64,000 bases of DNA from an uncultured Bacilli bacterium. Lineage in GTDB: Bacteria > Bacillota_I > Bacilli_A > RF39 > UBA660. Under the pieces are notes generated by a model. That model searched no databases and was not told the origin of the DNA. It saw nothing but the letters and a program-made list of their open reading frames with translations. This document shows positions 21,805 through 47,135 of this stretch, one piece after another. The translations under genes were made by a program, and so were the position numbers. The stretch is from positions 54,391 through 118,390 of the forward strand of contig CAKOJQ010000005.1 of NCBI GenBank assembly GCA_934090795.1, given 5' to 3'. Position 1 is the first letter of the stretch. Each line of letters starts with the position of its first letter.

Positions 21805-22086
21805 TTATATCAACCATTTTGTGGTACAGTGCAAAATGGTCATCAATATCATATTATACTTTTTTCCATCATCAGTAGTTAACGTGCATTTCTCGGTAAC
21901 TAAATTTTTATCTAATTCATTGTCTTCAAATATATGTTTTAAGTGTAGACTTATATTATACGTAGAACATTCAAAAACTTTTGACATTCCCTTTTGTGAT
22001 AACCATAAAGTTTCATCTTTATAAATAGCATCTACTATAATATTGCCTTCATTATTTTTATATATAATTAATTTATTGTCTTCCAT
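21805..22086 (-). pseudogene. truncated RhuM-family (virulence-associated, Fic/DOC-neighbourhood) gene fragment
   Basis: MEDNKLIIYKNNEGNIIVDAIYKDETLWLSQKGMSKVFECSTYNISLHLKHIFEDNELDKNLV..TTDDGKKYNM matches the N-terminal roughly 90 aa of RhuM-type proteins, which I recall as considerably longer (about 300 aa). The frame breaks where the conserved YNLD..GYRV segment should follow. The rest of the gene is absent. Confidence 0.5.
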
Positions 22087-22377
22087 TAGTGTTCTCCCTT
22101 CCATTAATTTTTCACAGCACAAATTTATATTTGACTTGATTTTATTATAAAATATATTTTTTACATATTCCCAACATAATTTTTCAATTTGGAATTCATA
22201 CAAACTAATTATATCATCATTTCATTTTTCAATAAATGATTAAACTCAATAATTATTTAAATGCTACACTAAAAATTCTATATTTCCAGATTTTGGGTTG
22301 TTAATGTTAACCCCCATAATTTACTTATCTATCTATAAAACAAAACTAAAATTATAATATAAATTTAATAGTAATTT

Positions 22378-22386
22378 TGCTATAAT
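22378..22386 (+). promoter_or_regulatory. extended -10 (TGCTATAAT) for the M16 peptidase pair
   Basis: TGCTATAAT lies 20 nt upstream of the RBS GAGGTGA and the TTG start at 22406. Confidence 0.4.
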
Positions 22387-22405
22387 CAATTTGAGGTGAA
22401 GAAAA

Positions 22406-23656
22406 TTGAAAATTAATATACAAAAAAAGCCATATATATTAAATAATAAAGACTTTAGAACAATCCAAATTCATGTAATGTTTCCCATAAAAATCAAAAA
22501 AGAAACCTTAGCATATATTAATATTCTTCCTAACATGCTACAATTTATGAATAATAAATATCCTTCCGAAGATAAATTCTTACTTGCTAATAAAAAATTA
22601 TATATTTTAAATAGTCATTGTGGATACTCTAGAATTGGATTAAATGGATTCTTTACATTTGATATGATTATACCAGATACTAATTCACTTAAAGAAAATT
22701 TATTAGAAAAACAATTTAGCTTATTTAGTGAAATGATTTATAATCCTTTAATAGAAAATAATTGTTTTACTTCATTTGAACTAGAAAAAGAAAAGAAAAA
22801 TATCCTTTTCGATATTGATAATTCATTAAAAAATATTGGAACATATCAAAATTTAAGACTTAAAGAAATCATTGATGAAGATAATATATTATCATTAAAT
22901 CTTACTAGAAATACTGATTTAATTGAAAAAGTAACACCTAGTAATTTATATAAATATTATAAAAAGATTATTATTGATAATTCCCCTATCATATTTGTAA
23001 TGGGTAATGTTGATGAAAATAAAATAAATAAATTATGTAATAAATATTTATATAAGAATTTTAAAAATAAAGAAATTAACATTAAACTTGATTATTTTAT
23101 GAATACAAGAGATAAAATTTTAGAAGTCACAGAAAATAGTTCTTTTAATAATTCATGTTTATCAATTGTATATAAAGTAAAGGATGCAAATGAATTTGAC
23201 TATATTTATTTAAATTATGTAAGAGATATATTAACATCTATTTCTTTAGGATTACTTAGTAAAACCTTAAGAGAAGATTTAGAAATTGTTTATTCAGTAA
23301 AAGTAAAACCATATTCTCGTTATGGATTATTAGAAATTAAAGCATTTATTAATAAAAATAATATGGAACTTGCCAAAAATAAAATTATAGAAATAGTTGA
23401 TAGTTTAAAAAATCCTGAAGTATTTAAAGATGAATTAAATAATTTAATTGAAAGGCAAAGATTAGATGTTATTGAAAAGAAAGATAATAAATTTATTATT
23501 TTTGATGATTTTATTTCTAGCACTTTAAATTTAGATGACACTCTTGAAGAATACTATGAAAAATATAAAAATATTAGTTCTGAAGATATAAGCAATTTTG
23601 TAAATAGATTAGTATTAGATACAATATATTTTTTGAAGGAGAAAGATCATGAATAA
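22406..23656 (+). CDS. M16 (pitrilysin) family protein, non-catalytic subunit-like
   Basis: 416 aa with overall M16 architecture but no HxxEH motif. Translationally overlapped with the catalytic paralogue downstream. Confidence 0.65.
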   Translation: MKINIQKKPYILNNKDFRTIQIHVMFPIKIKKETLAYINILPNMLQFMNNKYPSEDKFLLANKKLYILNSHCGYSRIGLNGFFTFDMIIPDTNSLKENLLEKQFSLFSEMIYNPLIENNCFTSFELEKEKKNILFDIDNSLKNIGTYQNLRLKEIIDEDNILSLNLTRNTDLIEKVTPSNLYKYYKKIIIDNSPIIFVMGNVDENKINKLCNKYLYKNFKNKEINIKLDYFMNTRDKILEVTENSSFNNSCLSIVYKVKDANEFDYIYLNYVRDILTSISLGLLSKTLREDLEIVYSVKVKPYSRYGLLEIKAFINKNNMELAKNKIIEIVDSLKNPEVFKDELNNLIERQRLDVIEKKDNKFIIFDDFISSTLNLDDTLEEYYEKYKNISSEDISNFVNRLVLDTIYFLKEKDHE

Positions 23657-24887
23657 TATAGAAACAGTTACTTTAGATAATGGTTTAAGAATATTTTTAT
23701 ATAAAGATGAAAGAAGACATAAGACATTTTTTACTTATATAACTTTAGGTGGAGGCCAAAGAAAAAACTTTATTCTTGATGGAACTAAATATCATTTAAA
23801 TGATGGTCTTGCACACATATTAGAACATTATATAGTTGAATGTAATAATAATGGGAATTTTATAAAAAAATTAGGTAAAATGCAGATGGATACGAATGCA
23901 GAAACTAGTGACTTATATACTGAATATTACTTTCAAGCAGTCGAAAATATTGATATTGGAATCAAAACAATCCTTGATGCTGTTAATAATGTTAAGTTTA
24001 ATGAAGAAAACCTTAATAAATTAAAAAAACCTATTATTCAAGAAATAAGAAATAGAATGGATAATAAATTTTATCATTTAAATAAAATGGTTATGAATGA
24101 TGTATTTGGTGAAGAAAATTATATTGATGTTGGTGGAGATATTAAAGATATAGAAAATGCTACTATAGATGAAGTTGAGGCTCTTTACAATGCTTGTTAT
24201 AAACCAGATAATCAAATTATAGTAATTGCTGGTAATTTTAATAAAGAAAATGTTATTAATATCATAAAAGACTATTTTATGAATCTAAAAAGGGAAAAAC
24301 ATCATGTTGAAATAATTAAAAACAATTATGTAGATTCTGTATTAAAGAAAAAAGATATATTAAATTTCCCTACTCCTAAAGAATATAGGGAAATTGCTTT
24401 TAAAATTAATTGTAGTAAATTTACAAATAAAGAAATATTAGATCTTGAATCATATACATTATGTTTTTTTAGTACATTTTTTGGAGTAACTTCAACGCTC
24501 TATAAAGAATTAATTAAGAAAAAAATCATCACTGATATAATGAATTGTGATATGAGAAAAGTAGATAATTACTTTCTTATAACTATTGGTAACTACACAA
24601 CAAATGGAGATATTTTATCTAAAAAAATTATTAACACTATTAAATCTATGAATAAATTTAATACTACAATATTTAATTTAAAAAAGAAAGAATTTATATT
24701 AAAACTAATATTAAGAGATGAAAATATATTTAAAATGATTAATCCATTTATTACTAATGTAATTATTTATGATTATCCATATATTGATACAGTAGAAGAT
24801 ATTTACAATTTAACATATGAGAAATATGTTGATACAATTAAAAGTCTTGATTTTAGTAATTATACTGATATAAGTATCATAAATTAA
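23649..24887 (+). CDS. M16 family zinc peptidase
   Basis: LAHILEHYIVE carries the inverted zincin HxxEH motif. 412 aa. Confidence 0.75.
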   Translation: MNNIETVTLDNGLRIFLYKDERRHKTFFTYITLGGGQRKNFILDGTKYHLNDGLAHILEHYIVECNNNGNFIKKLGKMQMDTNAETSDLYTEYYFQAVENIDIGIKTILDAVNNVKFNEENLNKLKKPIIQEIRNRMDNKFYHLNKMVMNDVFGEENYIDVGGDIKDIENATIDEVEALYNACYKPDNQIIVIAGNFNKENVINIIKDYFMNLKREKHHVEIIKNNYVDSVLKKKDILNFPTPKEYREIAFKINCSKFTNKEILDLESYTLCFFSTFFGVTSTLYKELIKKKIITDIMNCDMRKVDNYFLITIGNYTTNGDILSKKIINTIKSMNKFNTTIFNLKKKEFILKLILRDENIFKMINPFITNVIIYDYPYIDTVEDIYNLTYEKYVDTIKSLDFSNYTDISIIN

Positions 24888-24889
24888 TA

Positions 24890-24918
24890 AAGAAGATCCA
24901 AAAAGTTCTTCTTTTAAT
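24890..24918 (+). terminator. terminator after the M16 pair
   Basis: AAGAAGA-tccaaaaagt-TCTTCTT followed by TTAAT. Begins 3 nt after the stop. Confidence 0.45.
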
Positions 24919-24944
24919 ATGCATTTTCCTTGTTGTTTTAACTA

Positions 24945-25343
24945 TTATAAACACTTATTTAATTCTTTTTCTAATTTAAGTAATAATTTTTTATCTTTAT
25001 CTCTATTTAAAAGTTTTTTAACATTGTAGCAATCTCTTAAAGAAGCAACTTTATAACCATTTATATATACATAATTTTTTGGACAAAAATCAAAGCTAAA
25101 ATTTATTACATCATCTATCATAAAAGCCTTATTTCCAAATTCATTTATTCTATCAAATTCACAATTAAAATTACTTAATAGATATAATAGATATTCGTAA
25201 TAATCTTTTGAAACCCAAATATCAATATCACGAGTTTGATTACTAAAATTTTGTAAAACTAAAGCAGCTCCAGTTATAATAATAAATTTATCTTTATCTA
25301 AATTATAATTATTTAATGTTTCAATAATATCATTTTTTATCAT
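24945..25343 (-). CDS. hypothetical, possible nucleotidyltransferase-fold protein
   Basis: 132 aa. ITGAALVLQNFSNQTRDIDIWV resembles the G-x-A ... DxD segment of small NTases. Weak assignment. Confidence 0.3.
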   Translation of the reverse strand: MIKNDIIETLNNYNLDKDKFIIITGAALVLQNFSNQTRDIDIWVSKDYYEYLLYLLSNFNCEFDRINEFGNKAFMIDDVINFSFDFCPKNYVYINGYKVASLRDCYNVKKLLNRDKDKKLLLKLEKELNKCL

Positions 25344-25517
25344 GTTTTACCTCTATTCTTATATATAAATAAAATTAATCAGTTCAAAATAAATTCTATC
25401 AAATCTAGATTGAAAACTCAAATATACAATTATCGTCTTTCTAATATTTCCAATAAAACAAAAAGACTTTATGGATAAAATATGGTACAATTTTTTTGGT
25501 GATAATATGAATTATGA

Positions 25518-25784
25518 TACTATAAAATCTACTCTAATAGATTTATTAATTTATATAATTTACAAATTAATGCCTTTAAGAAAAAATTATATAATTGTAA
25601 CAATAAAGATTTAAATATATTTATGATTGCTGGAGAAAACAATCCTGTTATTGGTAATATTAATCTTTTTAATGATTTAAAAAAGTTATTATTAAATATA
25701 GGCTATAAAAATATCGAAAGCAAATTGTATAAAGATTTAAGACATGAAATTCTTAATGAAGAAAATAATATAATAATTTGTTAA
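25518..25784 (+). pseudogene. C-terminal remnant of an alpha/beta hydrolase (lysophospholipase-like)
   Basis: Not in the ORF track. The open frame after the TGA at 25515 reads ..NIFMIAGENNPVIGNINLFNDLKKLLLNIGYKNIESKLYKDLRHEILNEENNIIIC*. This matches the usual C-terminal strand, His loop and tail (HEILNE) of such hydrolases. The N-terminal two thirds are missing. Confidence 0.4.
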
Positions 25785-25899
25785 AATATATTGAATTTCA
25801 TTCAAAAATAAAAGAATAGTATTAAAATAGTTTTTCTTTTAAAATATAAATTAAATCAACTATATTCATATTTTATTTTTATTAAATAATCTTATATTT

Positions 25900-25933
25900 A
25901 ACAACTTGTTGGGTGCTAACAAGTTGTTTTTGT
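25900..25933 (+). terminator. strong rho-independent terminator (now orphaned)
   Basis: Perfect 11-bp stem AACAACTTGTT-gggtgct-AACAAGTTGTT followed by TTTGT. Confidence 0.6.
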
Positions 25934-25957
25934 ATAGTAAACAAACAGTTTTTTCTC

Positions 25958-26227
25958 CTATTTCGTATTACTTTTTCTATAATAAATTGTTAACACTAAA
26001 ATAAGTACACAAAATGAAAATTCTAGCGTAGTTTCAAATCTTAACATAAATTCTTTTGAGCATAAAAAGGCATAAAGTAAATACGAAAAACTGCTTACTA
26101 CCCACACCACCCATGAAACAATACTTAAATCTTCTGATTTTTTGGTTTTTAATAGTTTCATTATTTGTGGTAAATAAGATATAAATGTACAAAATGATAC
26201 TATACCTAATAAAATATCTCCACCCAT
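25958..26227 (-). CDS. SemiSWEET / PQ-loop small sugar transporter
   Basis: 89 aa, three helices, PQ motif ISYLPQIMKLLKTKKSEDLS. Confidence 0.65.
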   Translation of the reverse strand: MGGDILLGIVSFCTFISYLPQIMKLLKTKKSEDLSIVSWVVWVVSSFSYLLYAFLCSKEFMLRFETTLEFSFCVLILVLTIYYRKSNTK

Positions 26228-41771: not shown

Positions 41772-42587
41772 TTAATCCTTCTTATATCTAAATAATCTAG
41801 ATGGCCTATGTCCTTCACCAGTTTTATAATCATCCGTTGCTTCAACCTTATTAGCAATAATTCTTCTAAAAGCAGGATCTAGTAATTTCTTATTAAGAAT
41901 AACCTCATAAACTTGTTGTAACTCTCCCAATGTAAACTCCTTAGGCATCATATTAAACACAATATCTGTATACATTATCTTATTCTTTAATCTTTCAATT
42001 CCAGATAAAATAACTAACGCATGATCAAACGCTAAATCATTATTTTCAACTATTTCAAACTTATATCTATCAGTTGTTTTATCTTTTAATATCTTCTTAA
42101 TTCTGGTTTTTAATATATCTTTACCATTATCAAGAATAATTGTAACAATTCCATTTTCTTCTTTAACACTAACATTAAACCAAGAAGCATTTTCCATTAG
42201 TTTAGTATTTAATCTATTTTTATCAATTAATGCCATATAAGCTGTTGAAACAATACGCATTCTAGGATCTCTATGAACATCACCAAATGTATATAATTGT
42301 TCTAAATAAATATTATCTAAATTAGTTTCTCTTTTTAATATCCTATTGGGAGCATCTTCTAAGTCTTCATGTACATCTAAAAAACCTCCTGGTAAACACC
42401 ATTTATCCTTAAATGGATAATCATCTCTTTTAACTAATAATATACTCATATTTTTTTTTGAAGTTTTACGATAATTATCAACCTTTTCATTTGCAATTGA
42501 AATAATTAATATATCAGTTGTTAATGATAACTTTTCAAATTTACTTGAATCATAATGTTTTAAAAATTCTTCTTCACTTTTATACAT
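41772..42587 (-). CDS. nrtR: Nudix-related transcriptional regulator, NrtR-like
   Basis: Nudix fold (PGGFLDVHEDLEDAPNRILKRETNL) fused to a C-terminal winged-helix-like region (FTLGELQQVYEVILNKKLLDPAFRRII). 271 aa, which fits my recollection of NrtR size. Confidence 0.6.
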   Translation of the reverse strand: MYKSEEEFLKHYDSSKFEKLSLTTDILIISIANEKVDNYRKTSKKNMSILLVKRDDYPFKDKWCLPGGFLDVHEDLEDAPNRILKRETNLDNIYLEQLYTFGDVHRDPRMRIVSTAYMALIDKNRLNTKLMENASWFNVSVKEENGIVTIILDNGKDILKTRIKKILKDKTTDRYKFEIVENNDLAFDHALVILSGIERLKNKIMYTDIVFNMMPKEFTLGELQQVYEVILNKKLLDPAFRRIIANKVEATDDYKTGEGHRPSRLFRYKKD

Positions 42588-42675
42588 AATTAGTATCTCC
42601 TCTTATTAACATTTTAATTATATCATAATAATTATTAAAACACGATAATTAAATAGAATATCTCTTAAATTTTTA

Positions 42676-42710
42676 TAAATAAAAATCACCAAACTCAAAA
42701 CTTTTGGTGA
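42676..42710 (-). terminator. rho-independent terminator after the Panacea-domain gene
   Basis: The minus strand reads TCACCAAA-agttttgag-TTTGGTGA followed by TTTTTATTTAT. Confidence 0.6.
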
Positions 42711-42716
42711 ATATAT

Positions 42717-43268
42717 CTATTTTAAAAATTTTGATTTTTCATGACAAGAATTTTCTTTTTTTAGAAATTCTATTAAATCTCTTAAATTATTTTCATTTCG
42801 AATATATTGTTTCATTTCATCTTTAGATATAACTTTATCTTCTTGATGATAAGCATAATACCATAATCCAGATGAATCACATATATAATTTTTTAATTTC
42901 CAAGTAGGAATATCTATAGTATTATCAACCATAATATTTATTAATAATTTTTCTTCTTCATTTAATTCATATTTAGCATTTCGACATGGACACATATCAC
43001 CATCTTGATAAACAAACCAATTATCATAAATTTGTGGGATAACTGGTCCGTGAGGCCATGCTACGAAATCTTCTAGTATCATCTTACATTCATCGTGATT
43101 AACTAGCCAAAATAATTTACACAAATAAATAATTTTTTGAACTTTACTACTTGTAAGCATTACTCTAGTTTTTCCTAATTCATTTCTCCAAATATTTTGA
43201 GCATTCGTTCTTTTAATAATTTTATTAACAACACTATAACAATTTGGAATATTTTCAAATGTTTCCAT
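42717..43268 (-). CDS. Panacea (DUF4065, SocA/GepA-like) domain protein
   Basis: LTSSKVQKIIYLCKLFWLVNHDECKMILEDFVAWPHGPVIPQIYDNW matches the KLQKLLYY..L....plf.e.feAW.hGPV...iY core of the family. RBS TAGGAGGA. Confidence 0.6.
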   Translation of the reverse strand: METFENIPNCYSVVNKIIKRTNAQNIWRNELGKTRVMLTSSKVQKIIYLCKLFWLVNHDECKMILEDFVAWPHGPVIPQIYDNWFVYQDGDMCPCRNAKYELNEEEKLLINIMVDNTIDIPTWKLKNYICDSSGLWYYAYHQEDKVISKDEMKQYIRNENNLRDLIEFLKKENSCHEKSKFLK

Positions 43269-43432
43269 AAAATCCTCCTAATCAAATATTAAATCATTAT
43301 GGATTACTACAAGCACAAATATATTTAACTACTTCTGCTGATGTAACTACCCATTATCATATCATATATTTATAGTAAAAAAACATATTATTATTTTATA
43401 TTTTTTAATTATGAAATATCGTGCATTTTTTC

Positions 43433-43462
43433 TTGACCTAACATCTAATAATTTGATATTCT
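43433..43462 (+). promoter_or_regulatory. promoter of small-peptide module 1
   Basis: TTGACC, then 18 nt, then TATTCT with TG one base upstream of the -10. Identical in module 2. Confidence 0.55.
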
Positions 43463-43530
43463 ATTACCTAAGGAACATTTAATTGTTTAGGTGATTACTT
43501 CTATTCTTTTTATAGAAAGAGGTGATAGTT

Positions 43531-43626
43531 GTGAATAAGAAATTATTATATTTTATTTTAATTAATTTATTTATAATTATTTTTATTTTATTCTATATTA
43601 TTATTAAAATGATTGTGTTAAAATAA
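43531..43626 (+). CDS. 31-aa hydrophobic peptide (type I toxin-like), module 1
   Basis: Not in the ORF track. RBS AAGAGGTGA, 5 nt, then GTG. Reads (M)NKKLLYFILINLFIIIFILFYIIIKMIVLK*. Confidence 0.5.
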   Translation: MNKKLLYFILINLFIIIFILFYIIIKMIVLK

Positions 43627-43727
43627 AAACCACCATAAACAGGGGGTTTTGTGAAAACTACAAAAAGGTAATCACTTAACATCCAAAATTAGGTGTTCCT
43701 TTTTTATTTTATGTAAGTCTTCCTTAC
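43618..43727 (-). ncRNA. predicted antisense RNA, module 1
   Basis: Minus-strand promoter TTGAAG (43762-43757), 17 nt, then TAGTAT (43739-43734) with a TGA extension. 5' hairpin GTAAG-GAAGA-CTTAC. Ends at hairpin AAAACCCCC-TGTTTAT-GGTGGTTTT followed by TATTTT, overlapping the peptide stop codon. Boundaries are predicted only. Confidence 0.35.
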
Positions 43728-43804
43728 ATATTCATACTATCATATATTTAAATTATCTTCAAGATATTAATTAGTTCAAATATGAAATATTGTGTATCTT
43801 TTCC

Positions 43805-43834
43805 TTGACCTAACATCTAATAATTTGATATTCT
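43805..43834 (+). promoter_or_regulatory. promoter of small-peptide module 2
   Basis: TTGACC, then 18 nt, then TATTCT. Same sequence as module 1. Confidence 0.55.
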
Positions 43835-43904
43835 ATTCCTTAAGGAACATTTAATTGTTAGTGTGATTACCTTTTTTCAAACATTATTGAAAGAAGGTAA
43901 TGTT

Positions 43905-43982
43905 ATGAGCAAGAAAGATTGTTTAATTTTTATCTTACTTATAATTATCATATTATTAATAGTAGTTATCTTGTCTAAATAA
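43905..43982 (+). CDS. 25-aa hydrophobic peptide (type I toxin-like), module 2
   Basis: Not in the ORF track. ATG preceded by GAAGGTAA, which is buried in a 14-bp stem (43867-43880 with 43887-43900). Reads MSKKDCLIFILLIIIILLIVVILSK*. Confidence 0.5.
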   Translation: MSKKDCLIFILLIIIILLIVVILSK

Positions 43983-43994
43983 CTACTATTAATA

Positions 43995-44104
43995 CAAAAA
44001 TTTCACCTAACACAGGGGTGTTTTGGTGTTTTTCCTATAAAGGCAATCACTTAACATTCTCCAAATTAGGTGTTCCTTTTTTATTTTATGTAAGTCTTCC
44101 TTAC
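43995..44104 (-). ncRNA. predicted antisense RNA, module 2
   Basis: Minus-strand promoter TTGTAC (44139-44134), 17 nt, then TATTAT (44116-44111) with a TGA extension. Same 5' hairpin GTAAGGAAGACTTAC. An imperfect bidirectional hairpin lies at 44004-44028. Boundaries are predicted only. Confidence 0.35.
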
Positions 44105-44162
44105 ACATTCATAATATCAAATTTTAATAATTTGTACAAGTATTACTAACGTAATTTCACAG

Positions 44163-44248
44163 ACAAACAAAATGAGTTCATAAATACCTTTGCTTTATAG
44201 ATTTCATTACTTGTAAGTTTTGCCCAAGCAAAGTTCACCTTTGTTTGT
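44163..44248. repeat. nested inverted repeat (possible structured RNA or recombination scar)
   Basis: The outer arms are ACAAACAAA (44163-44171) and TTTGTTTGT (44240-44248). The inner arms are CTTTGCTT (44188-44195) and AAGCAAAG (44226-44233). Confidence 0.4.
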
Positions 44249-44292
44249 TATCTATAATTATAAATTGCTATCATTTAAACTAAAGTTTAACA

Positions 44293-44662
44293 TATATTTG
44301 TAATTTAAAATATTATTTATTTCTTTAAATCTATGAGTATAATAAATTAGCTTTTTACTATCTATTATAGTACCAACTATATCGCCAAAATGATCTTTTA
44401 ACATAATATCAAATGCCAAATCCGGATATATTTCTACCTCATTAAATAATTCTTTATCTAAGTTAATATAATTAATATCTATTATATAAAAAATTATATA
44501 TTCTTCTTTTAAGTTATTAACATATTCTTGTTCTTCAGTAGTTAATTATTCATATACATGCATATTAACATAAAAATTATTTGATATTTTTGTATTAACT
44601 TCTTTATATTTAAAAGAATTACTTCAAAACATATTAATTTTCCAGGAAGATATACTCTATCA
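44293..44662 (-). pseudogene. decayed duplicate of the 5' end (about 125 codons plus promoter) of the large orphan gene
   Basis: Clear nucleotide similarity to 46722-47115, including the upstream TGTGATAGAGTATA box. Two in-frame stops lie near the 5' end. The open part reads ..TTEEQEYVNNLKEEY..NLDKELFNEVEIY..MLKDHFGDI..DSKKLIYYTHRFKEINNIL.., against ..TIEEQEFINNLKKEY..NLDKELFNEVEMY..MLKDNFGDI..DSKKLIYFAHRFKEINNIL.. in the intact gene. Confidence 0.65.
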
Positions 44663-44710
44663 CAAGTAAATAAAAAACGCAAAATTATTTATTAAATTAA
44701 ATTACGTGTT

Positions 44711-44854
44711 TTGTATTAACTTTACGATTGATATTCTAGTATAATACTGCCTAATAAATATTTAGCTGCTATCGTAATTACCTTTTTTCAAACATTAACG
44801 AAAAAAGGTGATTCTATGAGCAGGAAAGGTTGTTTAATTCTATCTTACTTATAA
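44711..44854 (+). pseudogene. decayed third small-peptide module
   Basis: Promoter remnant TTGTAT, 15 nt, then TATTCT. A 10-bp SD-burying stem is retained (44780-44789 with 44800-44809). ATG 44816 reads MSRKGCLILSYL*, which is module 2 (MSKKDCLIFILL..) with a 1-nt deletion. The 3' half of the module is replaced by the end of the large gene. Confidence 0.45.
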
Positions 44855-44862
44855 ACATCTAA

Positions 44863-47085
44863 TTAGCTTTTGCTTTTAACTAATTTATCAATTTCTTTTC
44901 CGACTGAACTAAATTGTAATTTTAAATCTTTTTTACATTTATTTAAATTTATAATATAATCATTAAGAGCAGTTTCATATGATTTTAAAATATCTTTTTT
45001 ATTTTCGCATTGTAAACTATCTTTTCTTGCTAACCATAAATAATCATTAACATTATATAAAACATTATTTTTTTCTAGTATTATCAATCTGTTAAACATA
45101 TTAGTAAAAACGAAATAATAATCTACTAGTTTTATTTGGTTCAAAGATTGAAAAATATCATAAAATAAATTATATATATAATCAAAAATTATCATGTTAT
45201 TTTCATTATTATCATCCATATCAAATATTTGTTTAGGCAAAACTATAGCAGAACAAATACGTTGCAAAATCACATCATATATTTGTGTTAAAAATTGCAA
45301 ATTATCTGATACACATGAAAGAATAATATCAAAATTAATATTTAACATATTATTTGTTTCTGGCAATATAAGCAATGTATTCTCTTTGTAGCTAAAATTC
45401 AAAATATCTATTATTATTAACATTTTTTCTAAATCATTATTTAAATATATTTTATTTAAATACGTATTTTCCGAATATGTATTTTCCCTTTCTTCACAAA
45501 TATTTATAGAAAGAAATTTTGTTTTACTAGGCACATATGTATCCATAATATTATGTATCGTATATGTTTTTGATTTACAACATTTATTACGATAGTAAAT
45601 AAATTTGCTTAAATTACAATTATCTGATAAAAATGGTAGAATATTAAAATTTATTTTATTTTTATATAATAAATAAAATAGTTTTTGGTCATTTAAAATT
45701 TTTGCCGTCGGTTTTGCTTTAAATGGCGAATATTCTTTTAGTTCGTTAGTAACTAATCCCGTAATATATTTATAAAATTCAATTTTTGTTGTTTGTTCAC
45801 TAATAGCAATATCTAAAACATTCCAGCCATATTTAAGTTGTTCATTAAAATATAAATCAAACCCATTTGAATAATCTAATGCTAAAAGAAAATCCAAATC
45901 TTCAAATTTTTTAATATCAAAAGAATCACTTATTAGTTTGTTTTTTGGTAAATCTTTTCTTTGACAAAATTCTACTTGACTTGAATTAAAAATATCCAAA
46001 AGAAAATTATATACTTTATCGTTTATAATACTTGTTCTAAAAATTTTGGATTTCTTTAATAAAAACATTTCTAACTTTTTTTGCAAATTTTTATTATATA
46101 TTTTTAATTCTTCATCACTTGCTTTATTTTGACAATATTTAATAAAACCATTATTAAAAGGCATACATGTATAAACATTAAATATTATTTGATATAATTC
46201 TTCAAAATCTTCTTTAGTTAATGTATTTCTACCATATTTATTAAAGATATTATAATACATTTTGATTATCATTAAATTATTTATCATTTCTTGATGACAA
46301 TTTTTATTTTGAATTTCACTATGTGCGATTATTTCTAGCTGTTCTTTTAGTCTATTTAACATATCTTTATTATCATATATGAATTTGTCTATATGTATTT
46401 CCATATATGTTATTTTATCAACTATTTCTAAATTATTATTAAAATCAAGTGATGAATTGAATAAATCATTATAATCTTTTTCTACTTCATTATACCTTTT
46501 TTCTAATTCATTTTTAATATTTTCACTTATATTTTTAGGGTAATTAGCAATTGCTTTGGCACTATATTCATATATTTTTTGATTAGTTATTAAACATGAT
46601 CTATTTATAATATCAATTTGATAATCAAGAGCTTTAAATATATTTATTTTTCTTTTACCTAATACATATAATCCCGTATATTTAGTTAGATATTTTTTAT
46701 CTTTTATTATTTCATTTAAAGCAATATATTTATATTTTAAAATATTATTTATTTCTTTAAATCTATGAGCAAAATATATTAGTTTTTTACTATCTATCAT
46801 AGAACTTAGTATATCGCCAAAATTATCTTTAAGCATAATATCCAAAACTAGGTCTAGATACATTTCCACTTCATTAAATAGTTCTTTATCCAAGTTAATA
46901 TAATCATCACAAGTTTCAAAAAGGCTTAGATATTCTTTTTTTAAATTATTAATAAATTCTTGTTCTTCGATTGTTAATTCTTCAAATGAAGGCATTATAG
47001 TATAAGAATTATTTGCTATACTCGCATTAAAATTATTACCTTTTTCACTTTTCTTTTTAAATAAATTGTTCCAAAACACATACAT
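44863..47085 (-). CDS. large orphan protein (about 740 aa), function unknown
   Basis: Long uninterrupted ORF. The track starts it at TTG 47115, but that codon lies inside the predicted extended -10 (TGATAGAGT). ATG 47085 or GTG 47079 downstream of a G7 tract is more plausible. No transmembrane segment, Walker A or other catalytic motif recognised by eye. Confidence 0.6.
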   Translation of the reverse strand: MYVFWNNLFKKKSEKGNNFNASIANNSYTIMPSFEELTIEEQEFINNLKKEYLSLFETCDDYINLDKELFNEVEMYLDLVLDIMLKDNFGDILSSMIDSKKLIYFAHRFKEINNILKYKYIALNEIIKDKKYLTKYTGLYVLGKRKINIFKALDYQIDIINRSCLITNQKIYEYSAKAIANYPKNISENIKNELEKRYNEVEKDYNDLFNSSLDFNNNLEIVDKITYMEIHIDKFIYDNKDMLNRLKEQLEIIAHSEIQNKNCHQEMINNLMIIKMYYNIFNKYGRNTLTKEDFEELYQIIFNVYTCMPFNNGFIKYCQNKASDEELKIYNKNLQKKLEMFLLKKSKIFRTSIINDKVYNFLLDIFNSSQVEFCQRKDLPKNKLISDSFDIKKFEDLDFLLALDYSNGFDLYFNEQLKYGWNVLDIAISEQTTKIEFYKYITGLVTNELKEYSPFKAKPTAKILNDQKLFYLLYKNKINFNILPFLSDNCNLSKFIYYRNKCCKSKTYTIHNIMDTYVPSKTKFLSINICEERENTYSENTYLNKIYLNNDLEKMLIIIDILNFSYKENTLLILPETNNMLNINFDIILSCVSDNLQFLTQIYDVILQRICSAIVLPKQIFDMDDNNENNMIIFDYIYNLFYDIFQSLNQIKLVDYYFVFTNMFNRLIILEKNNVLYNVNDYLWLARKDSLQCENKKDILKSYETALNDYIINLNKCKKDLKLQFSSVGKEIDKLVKSKS

Positions 47086-47135
47086 CACCCCCCCAGGCAA
47101 GGTATACTCTATCAAATACTAAAAATCACTAAATA

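Follow-up and report, generated by a model that had tools for sequence, protein, structure and literature searches.

A previously undescribed family of type I toxin-antitoxin-like gene pairs, as predicted from tandem modules in an uncultured low-GC gut lineage

Two small modules lie head to tail on the plus strand of a 64,000-nucleotide (nt) stretch of uncultured Bacilli DNA (contig CAKOJQ010000005.1 of assembly GCA_934090795.1; the whole stretch, with a G+C content of about 22%, is called the window below). Each module is probably a type I toxin-antitoxin-like gene pair belonging to a previously undescribed family, of which about 125 related modules were collected from about nine gut metagenome-assembled genomes (MAGs) and 47 metagenome contigs. 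An earlier note, made from the letters alone, had proposed a type I toxin-antitoxin reading for the two copies. That reading is strongly supported, as the sequence-level predictions that can be checked in silico held across the family. The in silico basis consists of selection on a small peptide, a local trap for the Shine-Dalgarno (SD) sequence, co-varying closure of the mRNA, conserved promoters and terminators, and a convergent unit over the 3' untranslated region (UTR).

The note had described two copies with a period of about 371 nt. Repeat search and alignment showed that modules 1 and 2 (Table 1) share blocks of 80 and 78 nt at 87-89% identity with a spacing of 372-377 nt; the tandem arrangement is confirmed and lies far beyond chance. 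Unfiltered blastn of the modules against the window returned AT-rich noise only. The promoter said to be identical in both copies is so: a 33-nt block consisting of TTGACC, 18 nt and TATTCT, with TG one base before the -10 box, occurs exactly twice (43433 and 43805), where zero occurrences are expected by chance. Nearly all large open reading frames (ORFs) of the window are on the minus strand, opposite to the modules.

Relatives were first sought in one genome per GTDB species with a degenerate pattern common to the leader of the module and the reverse complement of its 3' segment. This pattern gave 52 loci, 51 from nine MAGs (five Hadza gut 'uncultured Bacilli', 'Tenericutes' UMGS1661, 'Bacillales' UBA6331 and two water-deer gut MAGs) and one a chance match in Limosilactobacillus. 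An nhmmer profile search of the window and the 52 genome loci yielded 72 modules. A second, independent pattern, made of the end of helix H1 (defined below), the U-tract and the start of the following hairpin, was scanned over metagenome contigs and added 47 loci with 54 modules. Well-sampled MAGs contain 6-15 modules each; 38 loci are singletons, 11 are pairs and 4 are triplets.

Elements that are multicopy, both tandem and dispersed, and that carry an internal inverted repeat could be selfish DNA repeats akin to miniature inverted-repeat transposable elements or repetitive extragenic palindromes (MITE/REP), in which the inverted repeats act as DNA and the ORF and promoter motifs are incidental. 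The breaking of assemblies at modules would fit: three short-read contigs with the Panacea-domain gene next to module 1 (L002-L004, ENA/Logan) end 194-260 nt upstream of that gene, within the module 1 promoter/leader repeat, and multicopy modules do fragment short-read assemblies of the host lineage. Against such a repeat, the inverted repeat is internal and not terminal, and homology stops at two outward -35 boxes, the ends of the unit being its two promoters. The neighbouring genes are diverse, resembling MurB, a sigma factor, ribosomal protein S12, LspA and RluD (likenesses judged by sequence, without a library scan), and recur at orthologous positions across several MAGs, so that copies sit in the same places beside housekeeping genes. 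The window's two modules had no match in phage and plasmid collections by blastn in 'distant' mode, and a single scan of IMG/VR viral contigs with the leader pattern gave 0 matches and hence no sign of carriage by phages. PADLOC on the ORFs neighbouring modules returned nothing meaningful.

The peptide-coding sequence bears on the same question. The tiny ORFs claimed for both copies were found (31 and 25 amino acids, aa), and an SD-preceded ORF occupies the same position in about 60 of the 72 first-round modules. Six peptide types share one architecture, a lysine-rich N-terminus followed by about 20 hydrophobic residues that form a single predicted transmembrane helix; GTG starts are frequent among the ORFs. 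Variation within types favors the third codon position (14, 5 and 22 variants at positions 1, 2 and 3 in type A). Synonymous changes exceed those expected from random placement in type A (17 observed, 10.3 expected, P = 0.007) and type D (12 against 7.8, P = 0.04), and the proportion in type C (9 of 11) was reached by none of 5000 simulations. Replacements are conservative, within I/V/L/F/M or between K and R. The small ORF is under purifying selection, contrary to what incidental coding in a DNA repeat would predict.

Several copies carry truncated or frameshifted ORFs. In the window, a third, decayed module retains the TATTCT -10 box and an SD-sequestering hairpin (44774-44813), lacks the H1 leader AAGGAACA and the entire 3' half, and has a type-B ORF frameshifted and truncated by a 1-nt deletion (44816-44854, MSRKGCLILSYL*); the remnant abuts the stop codon of the adjacent 750-aa ORF. 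Decay and truncation of this sort would be expected of toxin genes. The earlier note had recognized neither peptide as a member of a named family, and searches agree: four peptide types scanned against Pfam and NCBIfam (E <= 10) produced meaningless matches only, phmmer with the 31-aa peptide against 1.8 billion (1.8e9) representative proteins gave 0 matches, and when the 31-, 34- and 39-aa ORFs were looked up by exact sequence, no record listed any of them as a called gene.

Pairing between the two ends of the predicted mRNA is the second conserved property. Leaders had been placed at 43470-43498 and 43842-43871, which is correct, and the segments at 43667-43701 and 44042-44078 are indeed complementary to them. 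A small hairpin followed by T6AT4 had been described after the 3' segment; both are present but in the opposite order, T6AT4 preceding the hairpin. Folding of the predicted sense RNAs, which the note had called for, gave minimum free energies (MFE) of -60.9 kcal/mol for 43469-43705 (z = -6.2 against shuffles) and -75.0 kcal/mol for 43841-44082 (z = -9.2), with the 5' end paired to the 3' end in both. The ORF 2 stop codon is bracketed by a perfect 16-nt inverted repeat (TATTAATAGTAGTTAT / ATAACTACTATTAATA, 43954-43994, plus strand) that forms a strong hairpin in the mRNA 2 MFE structure; module 1 has no equivalent.

Covariation was evaluated on an alignment of 60 predicted sense transcripts, with H1 defined as leader nt 1-15 paired with the 15 nt abutting the U-tract and H2 as leader nt 18-30 paired with GGUAAUCACUUAA. 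RNAalifold on the whole-module alignment recovered H2 only because the ORF region aligns poorly between types, and explicit-helix tests and cognate-versus-non-cognate duplex tests were therefore used instead. Alignment cells within H1 and H2 were 96% paired over the 60 sequences, and overall pairing was 92% as against 37-51% when the partner columns were slid. Compensatory pair changes were present (UA 37, CG 13, UG 10; AU 51, GC 6, GU 3), both strands of H2 carry new sequence in types D, E and F (arm pairs in Table 1), and every type preserves the same two-helix layout with a 6-8-nt internal loop on the 3' strand. Cells that depart from Watson-Crick pairing in H1/H2 comprise 156 G·U and 13 A·C, and from this strand-specific excess it follows that both arms pair in the plus-strand RNA. 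Leader/3' segment duplexes averaged -32.3 kcal/mol for cognate partners, -9.5 for shuffled leaders and -28.6 across types; type F duplexes reached -39.7 kcal/mol with the cognate partner versus -16 to -29 with others. Because the first search pattern could inflate complementarity, the test was repeated on the metagenome set, whose pattern constrains only 6 nt of one arm, with the same outcome (-33.1 versus -9.8 kcal/mol, about 28 base pairs (bp), 64 G·U versus 3 A·C). H1 formed with a mean probability of 0.89 in partition-function folds and exceeded 0.5 in 59 of 60 modules.

The 5'-3' closure is conserved and co-varying. The selection on RNA pairing that the note had read from a few mismatches is borne out by compensatory changes and by a sense-strand-specific excess of G·U over A·C, not the picture of repeats maintained only at the DNA level. 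With mismatches biased toward G·U on one strand only and with compensatory changes that preserve RNA pairing, the chance that the modules are selfish DNA repeats is close to negligible. It is almost certain that each intact module is a real small-protein gene with a structured mRNA.

The consensus of the sense promoter is kept across the family, with a TATAAT -10 box in type F, where the spacer also differs from that of types A and B. In types A, B and F, H1 begins 7 nt downstream of the -10 box, a distance at which the transcript should start inside the helix. Downstream of the start, the leader had been claimed to sequester the SD, and this held: SD and anti-SD co-vary between types (CCUCU/AGAGG, CUCC/GGAG, CCAC/GUGG and others), and the cognate anti-SD/SD duplex was better than cross-type pairings in 58 of 61 cases. 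The stem described for copy 2 (14 bp with one G·U) is correct, whereas the 6-7 bp given for copy 1 was an underestimate, the MFE structure containing 13 bp and one bulge. Hairpin 1 shares 43494-43499 with H2. The SD is paired with a probability of 0.82 in module 1 and 0.88 as the family mean. Compared between states, the mean was highest in nascent RNA (0.95), lower at full length (0.87) and intermediate once the 3' UTR was blocked (0.93); SD-sequestering cis elements, a property of type I toxin mRNAs, are thus predicted in all three (P 0.87-0.95). The start codon is predicted to be paired at 0.95 in the full-length RNA. The modeled rise from 0.87 to 0.93 lends weak support to the notion that antisense binding strongly alters SD accessibility.

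A second gene appears to converge on the first. Both opposite-strand promoters named earlier (TTGAAG-17-TGA-TAGTAT and TTGTAC-17-TGA-TATTAT) are present, and the prediction of a convergent antisense promoter is reinforced by the family: the -35 box (TTGnAn), a fixed 17-nt spacer, TGn and the -10 box (TAnnAT, as TATAAT, TATTAT, TAATAT or TAGTAT) are kept in at least 47 of 61 modules while the sequence of the spacer drifts. On paper, the sense promoter with its 18-nt spacer and TATTCT would be the weaker of the two. The antisense terminator had been placed over the toxin stop codon, which holds for copy 1, and for type A in general, whereas in copy 2 it lies about 10-40 nt downstream; types A and D both keep the terminator hairpin but build it with different 3' arms, as read from the alignment. 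The hairpin downstream of the U-tract is almost invariant in sequence and has no U-run after it on the plus strand; judged by these features it is the 5' stem-loop of the predicted antisense RNA and not a plus-strand terminator. In module 1 the loop of the antisense middle hairpin, UUUGGAU, is the complement of AUCCAAA, the only unpaired stretch of the closing helix. The predicted transcript ends give mRNA/antisense overlaps at 43617-43710 and 43990-44087. Taken together, a real antisense gene is quite likely, with a predicted RNA of about 110 nt covering the 3' UTR.

Whether the antisense RNA might target the SD in trans, in the style of SprA1as or RNA II, was considered and rejected: its duplex with the initiation region amounts to -10.9 kcal/mol as compared with -9.4 for shuffles (z = -0.7). 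This chance-level value also weighs on a par/Fst-like arrangement, in which the sense mRNA would end at a bidirectional terminator after the ORF, the 3' segment would belong to the antisense RNA alone, and the antisense RNA would be a leader mimic acting on the initiation region. A plus-strand hairpin with UUUUG(G)UG right after the stop codon (44004-44020 was flagged) would suit such an arrangement, as would the leader-like sequence with an AUUACC anti-SD-like motif borne by the antisense RNA. However, the repeats here are inverted and those of par direct, which leaves the antisense RNA without complementarity to the leader; its similarity to the leader runs over H1, a stretch for which the initiation region offers no partner. 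The G·U excess in both sequence sets requires leader and 3' segment on one plus-strand RNA, the invariant U-tract directly abuts the H1 3' strand, and neither an Fst_toxin match in Pfam nor any Rfam match was obtained. A par/Fst-like arrangement is accordingly quite improbable.

For the type I toxin-antitoxin reading, we infer transcription of both strands, peptide toxicity and an outcome of antisense binding along the following lines. A weak extended -10 promoter would start an mRNA of ~240 nt exactly at the first base of H1. The anti-SD, located just upstream of the SD, would form a local hairpin once both had been transcribed. The SD would be buried in it, as would the start codon once the RNA is full-length; this trap would block co-transcriptional translation of the 25-31-aa peptide with its single transmembrane helix. 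On transcription of the 3' UTR, its last ~35 nt before the U-tract would pair with the first ~30 nt of the mRNA, and H1 and H2 (~28 bp) would form around the internal loop and hide the 5' end. Since H1 abuts the U-tract, the closing helix is probably also the terminator stem. The better convergent promoter would produce the ~110-nt antisense RNA in excess, with a protective 5' stem-loop and its own terminator at the toxin stop codon; it would be perfectly complementary to the 3' UTR throughout, the H1 and H2 3' strands included. First contact would likely be made between the antisense hairpin loop and the unpaired stretch of the closing helix, after which the antisense RNA could invade the 3' strand to give a ~90-nt duplex, subject to RNase III-type decay as in TxpA/RatA and BsrG/SR4.

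A more elaborate version of these steps is possible, though doubtful. The module may be a three-way strand-exchange switch in which the closing helix serves as terminator stem and the antitoxin, entering by a kissing loop, is a 'leader mimic' that competes for the 3' strand. As H2 and the extended SD stem are mutually exclusive, displacement of the leader would lengthen the anti-SD hairpin, opening the mRNA to nucleases and tightening the translational block. Since the 6-15 copies of a genome hardly differ in their 3' segments, one antitoxin could police all toxin paralogues.

A genuine toxin-antitoxin function is likely on these predictions. The alternative with most in its favor, itself unlikely, is a gene for a non-toxic small membrane protein, such as a regulator or a subunit-like micro-protein, with a structured mRNA under cis-antisense control. 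Coding selection, mRNA structure and an antisense gene are equally compatible with it, and the peptides match no toxin family. Multiple copies, decay and layered repression are hallmarks of type I toxins, whereas housekeeping micro-proteins are usually single-copy. Here, 6-15 paralogues occur per small genome in tandem arrays, their ORFs are frequently decayed or truncated, three layers of repression are combined (the promoter is weak, many ORFs begin with GTG, and the SD is predicted to be constitutively buried), and the antisense promoter is nearer to consensus than the sense promoter. The toxin strand also opposes its neighbors: in 69 of 83 cases the nearest ORF of 150 aa or more lies on the other strand (counts that are not phylogenetically independent), such that read-through from a neighbor would give antitoxin-sense RNA and not toxin mRNA.

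Several observations weigh against the toxin-antitoxin interpretation or parts of it. Module counts are not phylogenetically independent, and all transcript ends are placed from consensus motifs. A peptide with a single transmembrane segment is not necessarily toxic, and many Gram-positive type I toxins carry a long charged C-terminal tail, which the family peptides lack; no more than one or two K/N residues stand at their ends. Every modeled state has the SD buried, and the sequence leaves the switching-on of translation unexplained. H2 has a mean pairing probability of only 0.28 because its upper half competes with the extended anti-SD/SD stem. A ~28-bp helix that encloses the whole mRNA would be an unusual terminator stem, and the weak hairpin with UUUUG(G)UG just after the ORF, flagged as terminator-like at 44004-44020 on the plus strand, could end part of the sense transcripts earlier.

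Table 1. Features of the modules in the window, with peptide types and H2 arms of the family
Feature	Position	Strand	Description
Intergenic gap holding the modules			1.6 kb; flanked by a SocA/Panacea-domain gene (42717-43268, -) and a 750-aa ORF (44863-47115, -)
Module 1	43433-43762	+	
Sense promoter 1	43433-43462	+	-35 TTGACC 43433-43438; 18-nt spacer ending TGA; -10 TATTCT 43457-43462
Predicted toxin mRNA 1	43470-43710	+	~241 nt, first base of H1 to U-tract; ends placed from promoter, H1 and U-tract
Leader 1	43470-43499	+	H1 5' strand 43470-43484; H2 5' strand 43487-43499
Anti-SD/SD hairpin 1	43494-43507 with 43514-43526	+	SD AGAGGTGAT at 43518-43526; MFE fold
Small ORF 1	43531-43626	+	GTG start; (M)NKKLLYFILINLFIIIFILFYIIIKMIVLK; 31 aa; type A
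3' segment 1	43667-43710	+	H2 3' strand 43667-43679; unpaired internal loop 43680-43686; H1 3' strand 43687-43701
U-tract 1	43700-43710	+	T6AT4
Antisense promoter 1	43734-43762	-	-35 TTGAAG 43762-43757; 17-nt spacer; TGA; -10 TAGTAT 43739-43734
Predicted antisense RNA 1	43617-43729	-	~110 nt; 5' stem-loop 43711-43729, middle hairpin, terminator; ends placed from promoter and terminator
Antisense terminator 1	43617-43650	-	Hairpin 43626-43650 and U-run overlapping the ORF 1 stop codon
Module 2	43805-44139	+	Head-to-tail with module 1
Sense promoter 2	43805-43834	+	Identical 33-mer
Predicted toxin mRNA 2	43842-44087	+	~246 nt
Helices of mRNA 2		+	H1 5' 43842-43856; H2 5' 43859-43871; H2 3' 44042-44054; H1 3' 44064-44078; U-tract 44077-44087
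SD stem 2	43867-43880 with 43887-43900	+	14 bp, one G·U
Small ORF 2	43905-43982	+	ATG start; MSKKDCLIFILLIIIILLIVVILSK; 25 aa; type B
Antisense promoter 2	44111-44139	-	-35 TTGTAC; 17-nt spacer; TGA; -10 TATTAT
Predicted antisense RNA 2	43990-44106	-	~115 nt; 5' stem-loop 44088-44106; terminator-like hairpin 44004-44020; z = -3.4
Module 3, decayed	44704-44862	+	nhmmer E = 2.9e-8
Peptide type A			MNKKLLYFI(L/I)(I/F)NLFIIIFIL..IIIKM.V.K; 31 aa
Peptide type B			MSKKDCLIFILLIIIILLIVVILSK; 25 aa
Peptide type C			MRKIDYLILFLIVIIFILLFIIIKLI; 26 aa
Peptide type D			MSKKMLYFIIINLFIIIILLI.LLFKV.N; 29 aa
Peptide type E			MNKRDILIFFLLIFILLLIILLYIVLI; 27 aa
Peptide type F			MSKRKFIIKFLRYICFIILCISILVYIVKK; 30 aa
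H2 arm pairs across divergent types			GGUGAUUAC / GUAAUCAC; GGUGGUUACC / GGUAACCAUC; GGUGGUGCC / GGUACCACU; GGGUGUCUAUCC / GGAUAGGCAUUC

The surroundings of the array contain additional features. The minus-strand 750-aa ORF had no Pfam and no PADLOC match and is the most recurrent neighbor of modules, with 11 homologues in 9 loci. A 53-aa minus-strand ORF between module 2 and decayed module 3 (44258-44419) is a pseudogene remnant that is 72% identical to residues 89-131 of the 750-aa ORF (BLASTP E = 4e-20), which suggests that a unit of large ORF plus module was duplicated and then decayed. On the other side, the SocA/Panacea-domain protein (Pfam E = 2.8e-8) directly adjoins the array. Type II antitoxins typically carry such a domain; here the gene has no obvious toxin partner beside it, the next gene encoding an NrtR-like Nudix regulator. 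Elsewhere in the window, GC skew is uniformly negative and turns to about zero or positive only at 22001-26000, where G+C falls to 19-21%; the shift could reflect plus-strand genes or an insertion.

Among the closest known systems are TxpA/RatA and BsrG/SR4 (also BsrE/SR5 and YonT/SR6) of Bacillus subtilis; the likeness is one of architecture only, with no sequence homology in peptide or RNA. Systems of the TxpA/BsrG type comprise convergent RNAs with a ~100-nt 3' overlap, a hydrophobic peptide with one helix, a partly buried SD and a stronger antitoxin promoter (PMC8167048, PMC8594479), and BsrG/SR4 and TxpA/RatA act via 3' duplexes and RNase III (PMC8167048). The new family is predicted to share the convergent overlap of ~100 nt, the one-helix peptide, the buried SD and the stronger antitoxin promoter, and on predicted ends its 3'-3' overlap lies in the range of roughly 75-120 nt that marks the group. 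It differs in peptide length, TxpA having 59 aa (PMC8167048) as compared with 25-31 aa. The antisense RNA of the TxpA/BsrG type covers part of the ORF, whereas here it would end at or just after the stop codon; in addition, a ~28-bp 5'-3' helix closes the mRNA and its 3' strand would be the antisense target. TxpA/BsrG-type loci are prophage-borne, in contrast to the chromosomal, multicopy modules beside housekeeping genes described here.

Closure of the mRNA is the point of contact with hok/Sok of E. coli plasmid R1 and AapA1/IsoA1 of Helicobacter pylori (the AapA1 toxin is about 30 aa). Full-length hok and AapA1 toxin mRNAs are locked by a 5'-3' long-distance interaction (PMC8167048, PMC8594479), and in the new family H1 and H2 together, about 28 bp, close the predicted full-length mRNA. 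In hok and AapA1, however, that interaction sequesters the SD, which is here trapped by a local hairpin, and the antisense partner binds a 3'-processed mRNA in its 5' region or ORF, whereas in the new family it would overlap the closing helix on its 3' strand. The new modules have their predicted antisense gene at the 3' end and not at the 5' end; the host is a Gram-positive-type low-GC lineage; and no Hok/AapA homology was detected in the Pfam/NCBIfam scans, where the sole match (HokA, E = 0.49) is meaningless.

Fst/RNA II (par of pAD1) and SprA1/SprA1as share with the predicted architecture of the family a hydrophobic peptide of ~30 aa, convergent RNAs, an SD within a stem-loop, a sequestered 5' end and multiple copies in Firmicutes. 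They differ in having complementarity outside the overlap, through the DRa/DRb direct repeats or the 5' domain of SprA1as, whereas the repeats here are inverted. Type I systems of Clostridioides difficile (CD2517.1/RCd8 and others) have convergent overlapping genes and unannotated, multicopy toxins without outside homology (PMC6563280); the predicted layout in a low-GC Firmicute, the lack of annotation and of outside homology of the candidate toxins, and the multiple copies are common to both. The C. difficile toxins are distinguished by a length of 34-59 aa, lysine-rich C-termini and location beside CRISPR arrays or in prophages, and no sequence similarity to them was detected. The Rfam search that the earlier note had recommended, with all 4227 families against 42500-45000 at E <= 10, returned noise only (mir-471, a snoRNA, algC).

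Type I systems are hard to find because the tiny ORF and the antisense RNA are both unannotated. With the modules described here, a well-delimited family would be added from an uncultured gut lineage of very low G+C content, which is represented by MAGs, whose labeled sources include Hadza human gut and water-deer gut, and by metagenome contigs. There are about 125 examples and six peptide types, and covariation support for the mRNA architecture is unusually clean; the search patterns and alignment are ready for covariance-model building; and high copy number, tandem arrays and decayed copies make the family a useful case for the expansion and death of modules. Reports of type I families are confined to Proteobacteria, Firmicutes, Tenericutes and, of late, Cyanobacteria (PMC12390103). 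The modules represent no new principle but, as the sequence comparisons strongly support, a new family of a known kind: type I toxin-antitoxin pairs with a 3'-overlapping antisense RNA and an unusual combination of features, in which two designs described in separate groups, the 5'-3' closure of hok and AapA1 and the 3'-overlapping antisense RNA of TxpA and BsrG, would be joined.

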